Part shown: positions 2,755 through 62,271 of the stretch, one piece after another
Layout of the letters: every line of letters begins with the position of its first letter
Position numbering within the stretch: position 1 is the stretch's first letter
Source: Bacteroidales bacterium
GTDB lineage: Bacteria; Bacteroidota; Bacteroidia; Bacteroidales; UBA1715
Direction: 5' to 3'
DNA: 64,000 nucleotides
NCBI GenBank assembly: GCA_045600045.1
Contig: JAZRXD010000089.1
Span: forward strand, 5,413-69,412
Position numbers and translations under genes: made by a program
The notes under the pieces: generated by a model
The model's input: only the letters and a program-made list of their open reading frames with translations
What the model was told of the DNA's origin: nothing
Database searches by the model: none

Positions 2755-3969
2755 ATGGTAGTATCGAATCTTGTAAAAGTTGCATTAAAAGCCATAGTTC
2801 TCAATAAGTTGAGAACATTCCTCACTATGCTGGGAATCATTATCGGTGTAGGGTCTGTAATTACCATGCTTGCCATTGGTGAAGGTTCAAAACAAAGCAT
2901 TACGGCGCAAATTTCACAAATGGGTTCCAACATGATTACCATCCGTCCCGGTTCGGAACGAGTTGGAGGCGTACGTATTGACGACGGTTCACAACGCAGT
3001 ATGACGTTGAAAGATGTTGAAGCAATACAAAAAGAAGCAACATTTGTTGATCTCGTTTCCCCAATTGTACAAAGTAGCGGACAAACCATTCACGAAGCAA
3101 ACAACTGGCCGTCGACTATTTATGGAGTTTATGCCGATTATCTCGACATTAAGAAAATGGCAATAAGCAAAGGTAGTATGTTCACCGAACGCCACGTAAA
3201 CCAGTCCGCAAAAGTTGCAATTATCGGGCAAACTGTGGTTGACAATTTGTTTGGCGACACAAATCCGATAGGACAAACAATACGATTTAAAAATATTCCC
3301 TTCCAAGTTATTGGTGTATTGGAATCAAAAGGAGAAAACACGTACGGACAAGACCAGGACAATTTGATTTTAGCACCATTCACAACGGTACAAAAACGAA
3401 TTTTAGCAATCAACTACGTTAATTCCATTGTTGCATCAGCATCAAGTGAAGAAGTTGCGGAACAAGCAGTTACCGAAGTAACGGAAATACTACAAAAAGT
3501 TCATAAGAGCGATGGAACCAATAATCCATTTAGAATTATGTCGATGGAAGAATTGTTGACAACGGCAAGTTCCACGACCGACATTCTCACCACCCTATTG
3601 GTTGTAATTGCCGGCATTTCGCTTTTGATTGGTGGTATCGGCATTATGAATATTATGTACGTTTCGGTTAAAGAACGTACCCGAGAGATTGGTTTGCGTA
3701 TGGCCGTTGGAGCCCGAGGCAAAGATATTTTGCTACAATTTTTAACAGAATCAATCTTCATCAGCGTAACAGGCGGCATGATTGGCGTTGTGTTTGGCAT
3801 AGTTGCCACAAAAGTTACTGCGGCACTCACCCAATGGCCGACAGAAATCACGCTTTCTTCTATTGTTATTTCGTTTTTCGTTTGTGCAATCACCGGAATT
3901 TTCTTCGGTTGGTATCCTGCAAAAAAAGCAGCCAACCTCAACCCTATCGAAGCGTTGAGATACGAATAA
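2755..3969 (+). CDS. ABC transporter permease (MacB/FtsX-like)
   Basis: RTFLTMLGIIIGV, GGIGIMNIMYVSVKERTREIGLRMAVGA and PAKKAANLNPIEALRYE motifs. Confidence 0.95.
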   Translation: MVVSNLVKVALKAIVLNKLRTFLTMLGIIIGVGSVITMLAIGEGSKQSITAQISQMGSNMITIRPGSERVGGVRIDDGSQRSMTLKDVEAIQKEATFVDLVSPIVQSSGQTIHEANNWPSTIYGVYADYLDIKKMAISKGSMFTERHVNQSAKVAIIGQTVVDNLFGDTNPIGQTIRFKNIPFQVIGVLESKGENTYGQDQDNLILAPFTTVQKRILAINYVNSIVASASSEEVAEQAVTEVTEILQKVHKSDGTNNPFRIMSMEELLTTASSTTDILTTLLVVIAGISLLIGGIGIMNIMYVSVKERTREIGLRMAVGARGKDILLQFLTESIFISVTGGMIGVVFGIVATKVTAALTQWPTEITLSSIVISFFVCAITGIFFGWYPAKKAANLNPIEALRYE

Positions 3970-54537: not shown

Positions 54538-56196
54538 TTATGGCAAAACTACTTCCATCAATTCATTCAATTGATAAAAGCTATTTTTAGTTGTATCCTG
54601 AAAATCCACAACTATATTACCTTGATAGGAATCGGTTATGGTCATTTCCGCAGATTTTACAATTGACGAATAAGTTTCCAACAATGGCAAAACGGCCATT
54701 TTCGACAAATATTCGCGAGCTTGTGGAGGATAATTTTTAATCGTAAAATCAGCATAATGATAAGAAGCTTTCCCGTGAGCTTTTTCAACCAACCGAGAAA
54801 CAGTTTCGCCTGTCGCATTACTTTCTATTGCCGTCCCCGCCAAAATATTTTTTGCATAATCAATATCAGTTGTGCAAATCAAAGCTTCGTTTGTACAAGC
54901 CACAAATGCCGGGAAACCCATAAAATGAGAAAAATCAAACAATCTAGGTTCAACCTGAACACAAATCTCTTTGGTTATATGACTCAAAACCATATTCGGA
55001 ATATCACTATTATTCAAAGACAAAGCCATCACACAATGAGGGAACGTTGTTTTTTGTTCGTGTTGAAGATGTTTCCACAAAAGTCCAGAACCTTTATATT
55101 CGTATTTTTGTACGAATTCCATTGTTCGAACTTTTTCCAACGTAATGTCATACAATGAAAACACGCAATTTCCAGAAAATGATTTTGCAAAATCCTCGAT
55201 TGTCAAATCCAATTTCGCCAACTCCTCTTCAATATATTTTACATATCCCGAACCTTTCAATTGAGAAAGCAAACGTTCCGGATTGATTGCTAAAGTTGCA
55301 AGCCACAAAGTGTTTTGAGGCAACACACCACAAATCTTATTGTCAAAATCCGTTGTTGTAAATTTATTATTTTTCCAAAAACGCTTAAATGCACGGCTTG
55401 GCGTACAACTTAACGAGGCTTTTATTTGTTTGTCGAATTCAACATTTATATGAATATAATTGTCTCTCAATGCATCTTCAGGAATATTTCTCAACGTCAA
55501 GAATTCCGGCAATTTTGAATACCACAACAAGTAACAATCAATCATTTCGGATGTAGAGAACCACAAACCAATATCATCTTTCACATTTAAAAATTCCACG
55601 AAATCTTTATTCGATGACAAGTTTTTAGCCTTTTTCGAAAAAATATTGTTCACACACTCAACAATTCCTTGAGTATGTATCGTTGAACAACCAAACACGG
55701 CAATTTCGTCGTTATAGGCGACCCACGAAAATCTATCGTTTCTGTTGATGTAGCAAACACAATTATCAACGCCCTCCAACAAGCTATAATTTTCGCTCAT
55801 TACCGAACGAATATAAGCCGAAAAATCCGCAGAATCCTTCAACATTACCGACATACATTTATAGGCATTTTTGAATTCTTGCGAAGGAAGCAAATACGCC
55901 ATAATTGTATTTTCCAAATCCATTCCTGTTTTGCTGGAATCCGTAAAAAATGAATGTATCGCCAAATCCAAAGTTTCGTTTGAAAACCCGTAACTTTTAA
56001 AATAGGCAAGTAATTTTTCGGCCGATTCTGCACCTTTTGCTTCAGATTTTTGCATTACCGAAGGCATATCAACAACGATTACCGAAGCGGCAGATTTGGG
56101 AATATATTCAACTTGCTTTGGAGCCTTTGTACATGCGGAAAACGCCGTAGTTATTACTAATAGCAATAGACCAAGCTGGACTTTTTTCAATTTCAT
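54538..56196 (-). CDS. DUF4836-like lipoprotein
   Basis: Lipobox FSAC and N-terminal YIPKSAASVIVVD. The family name is from recall. Confidence 0.65.
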   Translation of the reverse strand: MKLKKVQLGLLLLVITTAFSACTKAPKQVEYIPKSAASVIVVDMPSVMQKSEAKGAESAEKLLAYFKSYGFSNETLDLAIHSFFTDSSKTGMDLENTIMAYLLPSQEFKNAYKCMSVMLKDSADFSAYIRSVMSENYSLLEGVDNCVCYINRNDRFSWVAYNDEIAVFGCSTIHTQGIVECVNNIFSKKAKNLSSNKDFVEFLNVKDDIGLWFSTSEMIDCYLLWYSKLPEFLTLRNIPEDALRDNYIHINVEFDKQIKASLSCTPSRAFKRFWKNNKFTTTDFDNKICGVLPQNTLWLATLAINPERLLSQLKGSGYVKYIEEELAKLDLTIEDFAKSFSGNCVFSLYDITLEKVRTMEFVQKYEYKGSGLLWKHLQHEQKTTFPHCVMALSLNNSDIPNMVLSHITKEICVQVEPRLFDFSHFMGFPAFVACTNEALICTTDIDYAKNILAGTAIESNATGETVSRLVEKAHGKASYHYADFTIKNYPPQAREYLSKMAVLPLLETYSSIVKSAEMTITDSYQGNIVVDFQDTTKNSFYQLNELMEVVLP

Positions 56197-56349: not shown

Positions 56350-59300
56350 ATGATGCATACACTTATTCAAAAAATCATAGAAATTGGACAAAAAGGAAAA
56401 TCAATACACGTATTGTTGCCAGACATTTGCAACAACATTTCGATTTTTCCCGATGTAATCGGCGTCCTCATTTCTTACAACAACATAAACTATTATAGTT
56501 CTCATTTCACAATCAGCAAAAACGTACAAAACCAAGAACTACGAATAGGCGAAAAAATCGTTGGAAACCTTTCCGTTTATTATCAAGAACAAGTCGAAAA
56601 CAAGCAATTTGAAGAAGCCGATTTGCTGTGTGCGGCATCAATCATTACCGGATTCATTTCGGAAAACAAACTAATTCGTTTAACAAACGATTACCAAAAA
56701 CGCACTTTGGAACTTTCGGCAATAAAAAAAGCCAAGGAAATTATCAATTCCGGGTTGCCGACTGAACGAATTCTTCAAGATATATGCGATATGTTACCGC
56801 AATTTTGGAAATTCTCGGATTGTGCGTGCTGTAGAATCACCTTCGACAACGCAAAATACACTTCACACGGATTTAAGGAATCGACCTGTTCAATGAAAGA
56901 ATCTTTCGTCACGTTCGACAACACAACCGGAACAATAGAAATGTTCTACACGAAAGACGACTACATCGACACCGAAAACTTGTTCATGCCCGAAGAAAGA
57001 GAACTTGCCAACACAATAGGACATTTTCTTTGTCAATACATAAACGACACCAAAGGCCGTTTGCTTTCGAACAACCCGATTGTAAACAACAATCCTACAA
57101 GTAAAGATGAACTCACCCGCGAATCGCTTATCCACAGCGACAAACCGCTACAGAAACTGCTAAACGAACAAACATTCGACAAGTACATTTATTTGGACAT
57201 GATGAAACACAAAGTTTCGCAGATTTTGTTTGTCGCAACAATGTACGACGCGTTTAATCTTGAAAAAGACGACAGTTTCTTTGAACGATTCATGGGACCA
57301 ATTTACCAATATAGTATTTTCTCATTACCGAGAATTATTGGTGTTTCGTCGCACAAGCAAGCCCTTGAGTTACTAAAAACCACCCATTTTGATTTGGTTA
57401 TCCTAATGGTTGGTGCCGATGTGCAAAAACCTCTTTTTTTAAGTGGCAAAATCAGAAAAATAAACACGGAAGTCCCTATATATCTGTTGCTTAATCCTCG
57501 TTCAAACATTGCATATTTCGAAGACATGGTTGCAAAAACAACTTTGTTCAACAAAATATTTGTGTGGAACGGTGATTCACAAATTTTTTTCGCAATGGTA
57601 AAATCTTTGGAAGATCTTGCCAATGCCGAAAACGACACTAAAATCGGACTTGTCCGCACCATGTTGTTGATTGAGGATTCTTCGCAATACTATTCGAAAT
57701 ACCTACCGATTATATTCTCGGTCCTTTTCGACCAAGTGGGAGAACAAATTTCCAACTTCGAATCGAACGAATTGGAAAAACTGTCTAAAATCCGTTCAAG
57801 GCCAAAACTACTTTGGGCAAGAAACTACGAAGAAGCAACATTTTTGTTCAACAAATACAAAGATTTTATGACCTGCGTGATTTCCGATATGGAATTCCAA
57901 CGCAATGGTATTTTAGACAAAAATGCCGGTATAGCATTTATGGAGCGCGTTCGCGAATACAACAAAAACATGCCGATTTTGATTCAATCATCGGAATTGA
58001 AATATTCACAATACGCGAAAGAAATTCATGCGAAATTCGTCAACAAGAAATCCGATATGCTTCTTGACAAAATCAAGAAATTCGTGATGCATAATTTCGG
58101 TTACGGAGATTTCATTTTTAGAAATGGCAAAGGAGAACCTATCGCCAAAGCCCGTAATCTTCGCGAATTCGAGATGTTATTGCGTACAATTCCCGACGAA
58201 TCGTTAAAATATCATGCAGACCAAAACCAATTTTCAATTTGGTTGATGGGACGTGGCGAAATTGAATTGGCTCGACAACTAAATCCCGTAAAATTGTCGG
58301 ATTTAAACAACGATGTTTCAAAATTACGCGAAATGAACAACGTAATTCTTGATGAATATCGCCAAACAAAGAAACGCGGGAAAATTCTTTCGTTTGAAGA
58401 AACCGCAGTTATCGACGAAAAGAACGTCGTTTCGTTGGCAGCTGGTTCATTAGGCGGGAAAGGACGCGGATTGGCATTCGTCAATACACTCATCAACAGC
58501 ATCGACATGAATCCTTATGCCGATCAAATGGCACTTCGAACACCCAAAACTGCCGTAATCGGAACGGAAGAATTCGAGTTGTTCATCAAAAACAATTTTG
58601 CCGGGAAAAACCTATTTTCAAAAGATTTAACCGACGAACAAATTAAAGACATGTTCATCGCAGGCCGACTTTCCGACGATTTAAAAAGAAAATTGGCGAT
58701 TCTTTTGGAACAAATTTCAAAACCTTTGGCTGTCCGTTCTTCAAGTATTTTCGAAGATTCAGCGACACAACCGTTGGCTGGCGTGTTCAGCACATACATT
58801 ATTCCGAACAACGACAAGGATTTGAACAAACGATTAAGTGATTTGCAAACAGCCATAAAATTAGTGTACGCTTCGGTTTTCAGCGACCAAGTAAAAGAAT
58901 TTTACAAATCGACAAGCCACAAAATCGAAGAAGAAAAAATGGCAATTGTAATCCAAGAAGTTGTGGGCGACTACCACGAACAATTCTTCTATCCACACAT
59001 TTGCGGTGTGGCACAATCGTACAACTACTATCCTATCGCACACATGAAACCTGAAGAAGGTTTTGCAGTTTGTGCTGTTGGTCTTGGTTTCTACATTGTT
59101 GATGGAGGAAATGCCTATCGTTTTTCTCCCCACTATCCAAAAGTGGAAATTTTAAGCCCGAAAGATCAAATCAAATCATCGCAAACGCATTTCTACGCAG
59201 TTGATTTTTCAAAAACAAACGTCAATTACAAACGCGATGGCGAACACGCCGCTCTTACACTTTTGCCGATTTCGGAAGCCGAAAAACACAACACGTTGAA

Positions 59301-60117
59301 ACATTGTGCTTCGGTTTATAACGTTGAAAATGATAGAATTGAGCCAGGACTTTCCGGCTATGGTCCTCGCATTATAAACTTTGCAAATATTTTAAAATAC
59401 GACTACGCTCCTCTTGCCGAAATTCTTACACTGATTTTAAATACCGTGCAAGAAGCAATGGGTACGCCGGTGGAAATTGAGTTTGCCGTTGATTTGAACG
59501 AAAACGAAGACGGTGTTCCGTCATTCTATCTTCTTCAAATAAAACCACTTACGGGTAGCTTATTGTCAGAAAACGCTTTCCCGGAAGTATTGAAGTCAGC
59601 TCCACAATTACTCCACACAACAACCAGTATGGGTAATGGATTTATAGAAAACATTTGCGATGCAGTTTACATTGATTTGGAAAAATTCGACAAGCTTCGC
59701 ACTCTCGAAATGGTTGCCGAAATTGAAAAAATCAATAAAGCGATGGTCGAAAAAGGTCGGAAATATCTACTTATCGGACCTGGACGATGGGGAACAAGCG
59801 ATAGATTTTTGGGAATTCCTGTTTTGTGGTCGCAAATATCCAATGCAAAAGTCATTGTGGAAATCAGTTTGTCGAACTTCCCGCTTGACGCATCGCTCGG
59901 CTCGCACTTCTTCCACAACATTTCCACTATGAATATCGGTTATTTTGCCATAGAACACACGAACGAAGAAAATTTCATCAATTGGGACATTTTAAAACGC
60001 CAAAAAGTAGTTGAACAAACAGAATTTTTCGTTCATGTTCAATTTGACAAAAATCTTTGCGTTTATATGCAAGGAAAAGAACGAACTGCTACTATCTTTG
60101 TAAACGAATCCGAATAA
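56350..60117 (+). CDS. Multidomain protein: two GAF-like units, two receiver-like domains, a PEP/pyruvate-binding (PPDK_N) ATP-grasp domain and a C-terminal His-containing domain
   Basis: GGKGRGL, LAVRSSSIFED, AGVFSTY, MAIVIQEVVG, PVEIEFA and LLQIKP ATP-grasp motifs; LLIED..VISD..FVNK receiver; GSHFFHN near the C-terminus. Confidence 0.85.
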   Translation: MMHTLIQKIIEIGQKGKSIHVLLPDICNNISIFPDVIGVLISYNNINYYSSHFTISKNVQNQELRIGEKIVGNLSVYYQEQVENKQFEEADLLCAASIITGFISENKLIRLTNDYQKRTLELSAIKKAKEIINSGLPTERILQDICDMLPQFWKFSDCACCRITFDNAKYTSHGFKESTCSMKESFVTFDNTTGTIEMFYTKDDYIDTENLFMPEERELANTIGHFLCQYINDTKGRLLSNNPIVNNNPTSKDELTRESLIHSDKPLQKLLNEQTFDKYIYLDMMKHKVSQILFVATMYDAFNLEKDDSFFERFMGPIYQYSIFSLPRIIGVSSHKQALELLKTTHFDLVILMVGADVQKPLFLSGKIRKINTEVPIYLLLNPRSNIAYFEDMVAKTTLFNKIFVWNGDSQIFFAMVKSLEDLANAENDTKIGLVRTMLLIEDSSQYYSKYLPIIFSVLFDQVGEQISNFESNELEKLSKIRSRPKLLWARNYEEATFLFNKYKDFMTCVISDMEFQRNGILDKNAGIAFMERVREYNKNMPILIQSSELKYSQYAKEIHAKFVNKKSDMLLDKIKKFVMHNFGYGDFIFRNGKGEPIAKARNLREFEMLLRTIPDESLKYHADQNQFSIWLMGRGEIELARQLNPVKLSDLNNDVSKLREMNNVILDEYRQTKKRGKILSFEETAVIDEKNVVSLAAGSLGGKGRGLAFVNTLINSIDMNPYADQMALRTPKTAVIGTEEFELFIKNNFAGKNLFSKDLTDEQIKDMFIAGRLSDDLKRKLAILLEQISKPLAVRSSSIFEDSATQPLAGVFSTYIIPNNDKDLNKRLSDLQTAIKLVYASVFSDQVKEFYKSTSHKIEEEKMAIVIQEVVGDYHEQFFYPHICGVAQSYNYYPIAHMKPEEGFAVCAVGLGFYIVDGGNAYRFSPHYPKVEILSPKDQIKSSQTHFYAVDFSKTNVNYKRDGEHAALTLLPISEAEKHNTLKHCASVYNVENDRIEPGLSGYGPRIINFANILKYDYAPLAEILTLILNTVQEAMGTPVEIEFAVDLNENEDGVPSFYLLQIKPLTGSLLSENAFPEVLKSAPQLLHTTTSMGNGFIENICDAVYIDLEKFDKLRTLEMVAEIEKINKAMVEKGRKYLLIGPGRWGTSDRFLGIPVLWSQISNAKVIVEISLSNFPLDASLGSHFFHNISTMNIGYFAIEHTNEENFINWDILKRQKVVEQTEFFVHVQFDKNLCVYMQGKERTATIFVNESE

Positions 60118-60121
60118 AAAA

Positions 60122-60775
60122 ATGATACACGTTGTTATAGTTGGAATCCACAATTTGCAATCAGAGAGCATTGCAATGATGATTGAATCAAATCCAGAAT
60201 TCAAAGTTTTGGATATTAGAACTCGTACAATCGATTTTTTACAAAAAACGTATGACGAGCCTGTCCACATTGTGATAAAAAACATTCCAAAGATTACCGA
60301 AACCGATATTTCCGACGTTGAGGAAATCCAAAAAGTGTATCCACGAGCAAAAGTCCTTATCATTTCTTACGCCGAAAACGAAGAAACTATTTTCAACATT
60401 ATAAAAGTTGGAGCAAAAGGTTTTCTTTCGCACGACGCAACCAGACAAGACTTGTTCGAGGCAATCTATTCCCTACGAAACGGTTTCGATTACTTCAGCA
60501 AATGCATCACCAACATTTTGTTGAACCGTTACGTGTCGTCGATTCAAAACAACGAAAAGCCAGAGAACGAAGAGGTTGAAAAACTTAGTTCCCGAGAAAT
60601 AGAAATCTTATCTCTTTGGGGAAGTAGTTACACAAACCCTGAAATTGCTGATTCTTTGCATATTAGCGTAAGAACCGTTGAAACACACAAAACACATATC
60701 ATGCAAAAACTCAACCTCAAAACCCAGGTTGACCTTATCAAGTATGCAATAAAAAACAATATCATTAACTTATAA
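60122..60775 (+). CDS. NarL/LuxR-family response regulator with a degenerate receiver domain
   Basis: LSSREIEIL...IADSLHISVRTVETHKTHIMQKL LuxR HTH; a receiver-like N-terminus lacking the conserved Asp and Lys residues. Confidence 0.9.
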   Translation: MIHVVIVGIHNLQSESIAMMIESNPEFKVLDIRTRTIDFLQKTYDEPVHIVIKNIPKITETDISDVEEIQKVYPRAKVLIISYAENEETIFNIIKVGAKGFLSHDATRQDLFEAIYSLRNGFDYFSKCITNILLNRYVSSIQNNEKPENEEVEKLSSREIEILSLWGSSYTNPEIADSLHISVRTVETHKTHIMQKLNLKTQVDLIKYAIKNNIINL

Positions 60776-62271
60776 TGAATTGTAAATACGATATAGTTAT
60801 TGTTGGAAGCGGCCTTGGTGGACTTGTATGTGGTTACATTTTGGCGAAAAAAGGCTTCAAAATAGCAATACTTGAAAAAAATGCACAAATTGGCGGTTGT
60901 TTGCAAACATTCAAACGCAACGGTGTAAAATTCGACACCGGAATGCACTATATCGGTAGTATGGAAGAAGGCCAAATCCTCTATCGTTTTTGGAAATATC
61001 TTGGTTTAACAGAAAATGTTCCTCTTCAACGTTTGAATAATGACGGTTTCGATGTGATTTCGCTCAACGGAACGCAATATAAATTCGCTTCGGGCTACGA
61101 CAATTTCATCAATACTTTGGCAAAACAATTTCCCAATAATGTTGACGATTTGCAAGATTACATTAAACGAGTACGCGACATTGCCGATGCCTCACCGTTG
61201 TACAATCTGCGTAAAATCCAAAACAATGTTTTTTTGGAACCCGACTACATCAAAACAAGCATAAACGATTTTATAGCCGGATCAACACAAAATCCTGTTT
61301 TACAGAATGTTTTGGCGGGAAATCTGCCTCTTTATGCTGGTGTAAAAGACAAAACACCAACATACATCCATGCGTTAATCACAAACTTTTATATCCAAAG
61401 TGCCTATAGAATCATTGGAGGAAGCGACAAAATCGCTAAATCCTTAGCTGATTCCATAAAAAACTTTGGCGGTGAAATTTTCACAAACGCTGAAGTTGAT
61501 AAATTCATTTGCGACAACGAAAAAGCAACAGCGGTAAAACTCACAAATGGCGAAATCTTTGAAGCAAAACACTTCATTTCGAACGTACATCCGCAAATAA
61601 CAATCAGCAAAATCGATACTCCAATGATTAGGAAAGCTTACAGGATGAGAATCAACGGATTACAAAACACAATTTCAAACTTTACCGTTTACATTAAGTT
61701 TAAGAAAAATTGTACTCCATACCTAAACTACAACTATTACTACTATAAAAATTCCGATGTTTGGGCAGGAAATGACTACAATCCCGACACTTGGCCTGAA
61801 CAATTTTTATTTATGCACCAATGCAAAGATGCCAATCAACAATTTGCAGAAAGTGCCGAATTGATTGGTTATATGCGCTATGACGAAGTTGAAAAATGGA
61901 CCGGGACAAAAGTTGGACATCGTGGCGAAGAGTATGAAACATTCAAAAAAATAAAAGCAGAACGAATGCTCAAGGAATTAGAATTATCGTTTCCCGGCAT
62001 CAACAACTGCATTGAATCTTACTCAACCTCAACCCCGCTCACATACGAGAACTACACAAACACAATGTATGGTTCTATGTATGGAATTATTCGAGATAAA
62101 AATTTCCCGACACAAACGCTTGTATCACAACGCACAAAAATTCCAAACCTTTTTATGACGGGACAAAACATCAATTCCCATGGAATTTTAGGTGTAACAA
62201 TCGGTGCTGTAATCACTTGCGCCGAATTTCTTGGGTTAAACGAAGTCATTCAAGAATTTTACGAAGACTGA
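60775..62271 (+). CDS. Phytoene desaturase (CrtI)/retinol-saturase-like FAD-dependent oxidoreductase
   Basis: VGSGLGGL, EKNAQIGGC, FDTGMHYIG, TPLTYENY...GSMYG and LFMTGQNINSHGILGV motifs. Confidence 0.88.
   Translation: MNCKYDIVIVGSGLGGLVCGYILAKKGFKIAILEKNAQIGGCLQTFKRNGVKFDTGMHYIGSMEEGQILYRFWKYLGLTENVPLQRLNNDGFDVISLNGTQYKFASGYDNFINTLAKQFPNNVDDLQDYIKRVRDIADASPLYNLRKIQNNVFLEPDYIKTSINDFIAGSTQNPVLQNVLAGNLPLYAGVKDKTPTYIHALITNFYIQSAYRIIGGSDKIAKSLADSIKNFGGEIFTNAEVDKFICDNEKATAVKLTNGEIFEAKHFISNVHPQITISKIDTPMIRKAYRMRINGLQNTISNFTVYIKFKKNCTPYLNYNYYYYKNSDVWAGNDYNPDTWPEQFLFMHQCKDANQQFAESAELIGYMRYDEVEKWTGTKVGHRGEEYETFKKIKAERMLKELELSFPGINNCIESYSTSTPLTYENYTNTMYGSMYGIIRDKNFPTQTLVSQRTKIPNLFMTGQNINSHGILGVTIGAVITCAEFLGLNEVIQEFYED

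Follow-up and report, generated by a model that had tools for sequence, protein, structure and literature searches.

The genomic stretch analyzed here (hereafter the window) comprises 64,000 nucleotides of a Bacteroidales bacterium (contig JAZRXD010000089.1, positions 5,413 to 69,412, assembly GCA_045600045.1). It contains an open reading frame (ORF) encoding a PPDK_N-type ATP-grasp protein fused to receivers and to N-terminal sensor-like modules, and a gene for a NarL/LuxR-type regulator that begins 4 nt past the stop codon of this ORF (Table 1). An earlier interpretation made from the nucleotide sequence alone (the sequence-only reading) had placed the ORF at exactly these positions, and the motif strings it quoted are present at the corresponding residues: LLIED at 439–443, VISD with D513, QSS at 546–548, FVNK at 563–566, and LGSHFFHN with H1186. 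Its domain parsing is likewise borne out by Pfam, AlphaFold2 (AF2) models, and Foldseek. Known parts, namely a PPDK-type ATP-grasp domain, receivers, GAF-like modules, and an aspartate-less receiver (ALR) LuxR regulator, are combined here in a manner not described before, and a His-bearing domain that is likewise undescribed accompanies them. We consider it somewhat more probable than its negation that the protein represents a family of signal-gated, dikinase-like enzymes and that sensor and regulator act as a non-canonical two-component-like system at the 2-oxoglutarate/ammonium assimilation node. This reading builds on an observed architecture, conserved residues, a gene pairing, and a cis element with its distribution; from these we infer that a histidine is phosphorylated, which acceptor and which ligand are involved, and that the partner is the protein that binds the cis element.

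Table 1. Features of the sensor locus, in window coordinates.
Feature	Position	Strand	Details
Whole ORF, sensor-/receiver-fused PPDK_N-type ATP-grasp protein	56350..60117	+	1255 aa
N-terminal module 1, divergent GAF-like unit	56353..56685	+	aa 2-112; iterated search E 1.3e-21, AF2, tandem-GAF Foldseek matches
N-terminal module 2, GAF-like unit	56701..57069	+	aa 118-240; family motifs GTIEMFY and FMPEERELA
Pseudo-receiver REC1	57211..57645	+	~aa 288-432; AF2 (beta-alpha)5 fold, PleD matches; Met353 at phospho-acceptor position
Receiver REC2	57655..58098	+	~aa 436-583; E442, D443, D513, S547, K566; extra helix between beta1 and beta2
Codon of Asp513, receiver acceptor position	57886..57888	+	
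Beta-hairpin and helical linker	58105..58419	+	~aa 586-690; weak DUF5752 match, His622 kept in 90%
PPDK_N ATP-grasp domain	58447..59556	+	aa 700-1069; PF01326 E 5e-34
C-terminal domain of unknown family	59605..60114	+	aa 1086-1255; GPGRWG 1143-1148, LGIPV, E1171, S1182, G-S-H1186-F-F-H-N
Codon of His1186, candidate phospho-carrier	59905..59907	+	
Partner gene, NarL/LuxR-type regulator	60122..60775	+	217 aa; GerE E 1e-17; Asn54 at acceptor site
CrtI/CrtD-like FAD oxidoreductase	60775..62271	+	start overlaps regulator stop (TAATG)

PPDK_N is the sole significant Pfam domain of the sensor ORF. Matches to Response_reg (aa 490–559) and DUF5752 (aa 600–648) are weak, and neither Pfam nor NCBIfam finds a HisKA or HATPase_c domain, that is, a DHp helix with its H-box or a Bergerat ATPase, anywhere in the protein. 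The ATP-grasp domain retains its nucleotide- and Mg-binding residues. Among 143 full-length relatives with 19–86% identity, the set over which all residue conservation was scored, G702-G703-K704, R796-S797, E802, and E1044 are invariant, E1042 is conserved in 96%, and position 1065 is either Lys or Arg. The AF2 models, built as two halves from alignments of 25 sequences each, have mean predicted local distance difference test (pLDDT) values of 76.9 (aa 1–587) and 73.3 (aa 567–1255). The best fold matches of the ATP-grasp domain in Foldseek are the ATP domain of rifampin phosphotransferase (RPH; 5hv6, E 2e-9) and pyruvate, phosphate dikinase (PPDK; 1kbl).

The remainder of a canonical dikinase is missing. 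Pfam, PDB profile, and hhalign searches give no match in the ORF to the PF00391 swivel domain with its GGxTSH motif, and Pfam detects no phosphoenolpyruvate (PEP)/pyruvate barrel (PF02896, PEP-utilizers_C), an absence that the sequence-only reading had already reported; about 185 residues remain after the ATP-grasp domain. The ORF also has no substrate domain resembling the rifampin-binding domain or the PEP barrel. The NCBIfam models for PEP synthase, PigC, and RPH cover only part of the ATP-grasp domain, at no more than 46 bits against cut-offs of 598–1350. Because these matches are partial and lie far below the cut-offs, the protein is not a PEP synthase or PPDK, an identity rejected also on the absence of PF00391 and PF02896. 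In the genome as a whole (93% complete), PF00391 is absent throughout and only one PPDK_N gene is present; the genome therefore has no canonical PPDK, PEP synthase, or phosphotransferase system enzyme I. PF00391 is also absent from four of five sampled genomes of the same class.

A poorly conserved tether, modeled with low confidence, leads from the ATP-grasp domain to the C-terminal domain, in which R1146, W1147, G1155, E1171, S1182, and H1186 are invariant among the relatives and position 1185 is Ser or Thr in 140 of 143. The sequence-only reading had pointed to His1186 as reminiscent of the TSH phospho-histidine swivel. Conservation of the residue is strict (143/143, down to the most distant relatives), and the proposed likeness to the swivel finds no detectable sequence or profile similarity in PDB profiles, Pfam, or hhalign. 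Single-sequence and profile searches of the PDB with the C-terminal domain return longin/VP1 matches at chance level only, and these were discarded. When the C-terminal domain alone is searched against 1.8 billion representative proteins, the matches make up 1564 clusters at 50% identity, in a family of more than 8000 proteins, and in all 150 matches listed the domain forms the C-terminal end of a PPDK_N unit. A few proteins of 1523–1654 aa (P0135, P0159, and P0208) carry two consecutive units of PPDK_N and C-terminal domain on one polypeptide. Characterized PPDK_N enzymes act through a tethered His. By analogy with PPDK, PEP synthase, and RPH, His1186 is most likely a phosphoryl carrier: its domain takes an obligate place behind PPDK_N and hangs on a flexible tether, the [ST]-His is invariant, and a tethered His has precedent.

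Upstream of the enzymatic core, the tandem receivers (aa 288–583) find their best Foldseek matches in the REC-REC structures of PleD (9g85, 2wb4, and 1w25; E 5e-7), and the combination of a degenerate and an intact receiver described in the sequence-only reading is confirmed. The acceptor site of REC1 is Met353 in 79% of the relatives and Asp in none. REC2 has the (beta-alpha)5 fold, the acidic pair, the acceptor Asp, the Thr/Ser, and the Lys of a receiver, with E442 conserved in 96%, D443 in 85%, D513 in 91%, S547 in 97%, and K566 in 95%. Its Response_reg score of 16.9 bits falls below the cut-off of 30.2 owing to an insertion. Asp513, which the sequence-only reading had offered as one possible acceptor of the phosphate, is unlikely to be the general one. 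Stand-alone cores of 563–625 aa, complete and with a Met start, consist of the ATP-grasp and C-terminal domains only and, without any receiver, retain G-[ST]-H-F-F, which disfavors a relay from His1186 to Asp513 in cis. Such a relay is further weakened by the invariance of His1186 even in the 13 of 143 relatives that lack D513.

The N-terminal modules are less readily assigned. Iterated searches find one to five of these repeat units in each relative, most commonly four, and the AF2 model folds each unit into two helices, four strands, and one long helix. Foldseek relates the N-terminal model to tandem-GAF structures, including PDE6, PDE5A (3lfv), and the GAF-PHY region of phytochromes, at E-values of 2e-5 to 1e-3; the TM-scores are low because the query model is multi-domain. 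A profile of 28 N-terminal modules reaches the GAF structures 4g3v, 4g3w, and 6uv8 below threshold only (E 0.16–3), and a Pfam scan of the same 28 modules gives no match, GAF included. The two tandem GAF-like units of the sequence-only reading are thus recovered at the level of fold, with sequence profiles remaining sub-threshold. The GAF domain of NifA binds 2-oxoglutarate. The two GAF-like modules of the long form probably bind a small-molecule signal.

The partner gene, which is co-transcribed with the sensor gene, encodes a GerE helix-turn-helix (HTH) joined to a receiver without the acceptor Asp, and the acceptor position is likewise not Asp in 18 of 19 partners from related loci. ALR regulators of the NarL/LuxR type are a known class (PMC4395418). 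In a neighborhood survey of 80 genome loci recovered by searching with the C-terminal domain, a regulator lies within 1.5 kb of none of the 31 short forms (shorter than 1030 aa), 4 of 28 one-module forms, 4 of 9 two-module forms, and 6 of 7 forms with three or four modules. The association of the extended sensory N-terminus with a regulator neighbor, noted in the sequence-only reading from this single locus, therefore holds across the survey, from 0/31 short forms to 6/7 of the longest. The reverse also applies: all three partner homologues on large contigs (48–50% identity) lie directly after a long sensor of 1268–1535 aa and directly before gdh, the glutamate dehydrogenase (GDH) gene. The sensor and regulator genes stay together in relatives at 94%, 89%, and 82% identity while the genes downstream differ. 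Since the CrtI-like gene that follows the pair here is absent beside the pair in these relatives, the conserved unit consists of two genes.

The sequence-only reading had named the shorter forms as neighbors of gdh, and GDH is indeed encoded within 5 kb of 8 of 31 short forms and 12 of 28 one-module forms. The further suggestion that the long form has a regulator instead of gdh does not hold, as most related loci run sensor, regulator, gdh. The sole gdh of this genome is on a different contig from the sensor pair and carries the same upstream palindrome as the linked loci. One-module forms, with about 1150 aa, very often have a short paralogue of about 990 aa immediately downstream, with gdh as the next gene (L038, L045, L057, L065, L069, and others), an arrangement that suggests hetero-oligomeric pairs of the two proteins.

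In related loci, the DNA separating the regulator gene from gdh has a palindrome in common, TTACGT-N5-ACGTAA, whose half-sites vary symmetrically by lineage (TTGCGT...ACGCAA and TTCCGT...ACGGAA). In this genome, the 15-mer TACGTAAAACACGTA is located 124 bp upstream of the unlinked gdh, at positions 1766–1780 of contig C71. Of 13 regulator-bearing loci, 6 have the strict palindrome in front of gdh, as against none of 19 loci without the regulator (Fisher P = 0.0019). Genome-wide, TACGT-N5-ACGTA occurs at seven exact sites, six of them intergenic, in a genome whose non-coding share is about 7% as estimated from ORFs; for six control palindromes of similar composition, 0 of 32 sites are intergenic. 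A genome-wide scan allowing one mismatch brings hardly any further sites. The genes that follow the six intergenic sites are gdh, a korA-like 2-oxoacid:ferredoxin oxidoreductase gene, ddh (meso-diaminopimelate dehydrogenase), two anion transporter genes (DASS and CitMHS), and an MbnP-like gene.

The distribution of the palindrome across genomes follows that of the partner. In a comparison of this genome with 29 relatives, the strict site lies upstream of the gdhA-type gene in 12 of 19 genomes that encode a partner orthologue (40% identity or more) and in none of 10 that do not (P = 0.0012). In most of the other orthologue-bearing genomes, the corresponding position holds a near match or a variant of the palindrome, such as TACGA-AAAAC-TCGTA. 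The site upstream of korA, which in this genome is at 3534–3548 of contig C68, is kept at −95 to −120 in 11 of 14 congeners while the surrounding DNA has diverged. From these sequence patterns, we read the palindrome as marking a real operator and its regulon, and the partner is most likely the protein that binds it, an assignment that is correlative. Three congeners (G033, G034, and G036) have the symmetric variant TACGA-AAAAC-TCGTA upstream of gdh and no korA site, suggesting that their regulon may have been rewired together with the change in half-site. About 22 bp downstream of the main gdh operator (centre to centre; contig C71, ~1730–1760) lies an imperfect palindrome, TGCGA-ATTAT-ACGCA, that is kept in congeners along with the following TTTTCTAAAATTCA and may serve as an additional operator or as part of the promoter.

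In the mechanism we propose, a metabolite would bind the GAF-like modules, and REC2 would receive its phosphate from an unlinked kinase or from a small phosphodonor. The PleD-like pair of pseudo-receiver and receiver, through Asp513, would most likely gate activity together with the ligand signal, and the ATP-grasp domain would load His1186 of the tethered C-terminal domain. The core would then switch the aspartate-less LuxR regulator, either by modification of a residue other than Asp or by binding. The regulator is predicted to bind TACGT-N5-ACGTA 95–137 bp upstream of gdh and korA, as well as the sites at ddh and the two anion transporter genes. A more ambitious version, in which a PPDK-type ATP-grasp and a tethered phospho-His domain replace HisKA/HATPase_c to define a new two-component-like class, with GAF-like metabolite sensing and REC2 phosphorylation as inputs and, as output, phosphotransfer to an ALR LuxR regulator of gdh, kor, and related genes or some other direct switching of it, is put forward tentatively, as an attractive minority prospect; if true, the system would be the missing regulator of the 2-oxoglutarate/ammonium node in Bacteroidales.

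Several alternatives concern the enzymatic core itself. The name "pyruvate, phosphate dikinase", which close homologues carry in databases, and the presence of PPDK_N would fit an ordinary PEP synthase or PPDK, an identity we hardly credit given the missing PF00391 and PF02896 domains, NCBIfam scores of at most 46 bits where 598–1350 are needed, and a chain of only about 185 residues past the ATP-grasp domain. If, conversely, the core had lost catalysis and the ATP-grasp domain merely sensed nucleotides within a pseudoenzyme scaffold for the regulator, the lack of a recognizable canonical His or substrate domain would be accounted for; such a loss is very improbable, as the Lys, Arg, Glu, and Mg-binding residues are invariant in all 143 relatives, down to 19% identity, and invariance of this kind is typical of an active enzyme. 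The self-contained hybrid autokinase of the sequence-only reading, in which phosphate passes from the ATP-grasp domain to His1186 and on to Asp513 in cis so that phospho-REC2 signals to the regulator, is distinctly unlikely. The invariance of His1186, the full acceptor set of REC2, and the absence of an adjacent histidine kinase gene agree with it, and an internal Asp would fill the step that the partner, unable to take phosphate on Asp, leaves missing. It is at odds with the receiver-less stand-alone cores that retain the His motif and with the presence of the His in every relative, including those in which D513 is replaced; moreover, a receiver N-terminal to an enzyme domain, as in PleD, is normally an input.

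The two remaining alternatives accept an active core or a real regulon and differ from our reading in what the core or the palindrome is connected to. A receiver- and ligand-gated enzyme could act on a metabolite or on GDH itself, for example by covalent control of GDH, leaving the LuxR partner as an accessory that is sequestered or released with no phosphotransfer. What makes this a strong rival is that short forms without a regulator also adjoin gdh, as do one-module forms, often as tandem paralogues; the catalytic residues are invariant, and known PPDK_N enzymes, among them the NCBIfam neighbors PigC/RedH, RPH, and PEP synthase, phosphorylate small molecules or glucans. We nevertheless regard it as improbable, since the regulator has been retained in this genome although gdh is unlinked, and since the protein has no substrate domain of the kind seen in the rifampin-binding domain or the PEP barrel. 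The palindrome regulon could, on the other hand, be real and run by a different transcription factor, with the sensor-regulator pair serving some other target. The genome encodes only two clear GerE-type regulators, the second of them on contig C66, and this second regulator is an available candidate; the window contains no site, and the partner is tied to the motif by co-occurrence only. This possibility, fairly improbable in our judgment, has to contend with the position of the motif directly between partner gene and gdh in many loci, with the tracking of the partner orthologue by the motif across genomes, and with the symmetric co-variation of half-sites between lineages.

A signal-gated sensor acting through its dedicated regulator therefore remains our preferred reading, and a number of results weigh against it. 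The C-terminal domain has no PDB profile match, with PPDK, enzyme I, and RPH included in the search, and a Pfam scan of 36 C-terminal domains found nothing. An hhalign comparison of the domain with 27 PF00391 domains from genomes of the same phylum gave a probability of 0.3%; in view of this value, sequence homology to the PF00391 swivel is not claimed. The loop bearing His1186 (model residues 614–630) has low pLDDT in the AF2 model. As for the target, short forms lacking a regulator still adjoin gdh, so the enzyme may have a target different from the regulator. The link between regulator and palindrome is correlative, so that the GerE-type regulator on contig C66 or an unrelated factor could be the binder. 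A search of the window for the palindrome gave no site, even with one mismatch and including the DNA upstream of the sensor operon, and autoregulation through it is accordingly not supported. Finally, the literature yielded no paper on the family or on DUF5752 and no experimental data for any member.

Literature searches also returned nothing relevant on PPDK_N with a response regulator, on a gdh-linked pyruvate-binding-domain protein in Bacteroides, or on the reversible inactivation of GDH in B. fragilis. New here are the finding that the partner depends on long forms, the operator with its regulon, the correlation of partner and operator across the phylogeny, and the argument from stand-alone cores. 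To our knowledge, the control of nitrogen assimilation in Bacteroidota is poorly understood. Members of the family are widespread in Bacteroidales of gut and sediment, and both gene order and a conserved operator connect the family with glutamate dehydrogenase and 2-oxoglutarate:ferredoxin oxidoreductase, making it a candidate for a missing control system. If our reading is correct, a dikinase-type phosphoryl-transfer engine would have been recruited for signaling, and ALR regulators would gain a defined upstream partner. The hypothesis is directly testable through its predicted operator TACGT-N5-ACGTA, its predicted regulon, and residues K704, H1186, and D513.

Around the pair, the CrtI-like gene is probably co-transcribed with the regulator, as its start overlaps the regulator stop. 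It was considered as a third component and dismissed, being absent beside the pair in the three relatives mentioned above, and it may be a lineage-specific insertion that was brought under operon control. A scan for sigma-70 promoters and terminators performed no better than on shuffled sequence. A gene for a DUF4836 protein (54538–56196, minus strand) is divergent from the sensor gene, and the block comprising a UvrD-like helicase, an acyl-CoA synthetase, a thioesterase, and DUF4836 is syntenic in the relative at 89% identity.

Comparison with characterized systems places the protein nearest to other PPDK_N enzymes. RPH (PDB 5HV1/5HV6) and the PigC/RedH-type enzymes resemble it in the ATP-grasp domain, which gives the closest fold match and the best partial NCBIfam matches, and in having a His-bearing domain at the C-terminal end of the chain. 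In contrast to them, it lacks the PF00391 swivel and a large substrate-binding domain, has a distinct C-terminal family, is fused to receivers and GAF-like sensors, and is paired with a transcription factor. PPDK and PEP synthase share the ATP-grasp fold and the nucleotide-binding residues, and the Foldseek alignments with PPDK span 600–705 columns, a length consistent with a tethered domain behind the ATP-grasp; the GGxTSH motif and the PEP/pyruvate TIM barrel of those enzymes are absent here.

The regulatory parts have counterparts elsewhere. Like PleD-type response regulators, the sensor places one competent and one degenerate receiver N-terminal to a catalytic domain, but here the degenerate receiver precedes the competent one, an ATP-grasp takes the place of GGDEF as the output domain, and GAF-like modules are added. 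The N-terminal region is similar to tandem GAF sensors, such as GAF-A/B of PDE5 and PDE6 and the GAF-PHY of phytochromes, in its repeated small alpha/beta modules on long helices, whereas its modules are shorter (~115 aa, four strands) and have no Pfam GAF match. The partner shares with the ALR NarL/LuxR regulators (PMC4395418) a receiver fold and GerE HTH without the acceptor Asp, and differs from them in that its gene is specifically paired with that of a PPDK_N sensor enzyme.

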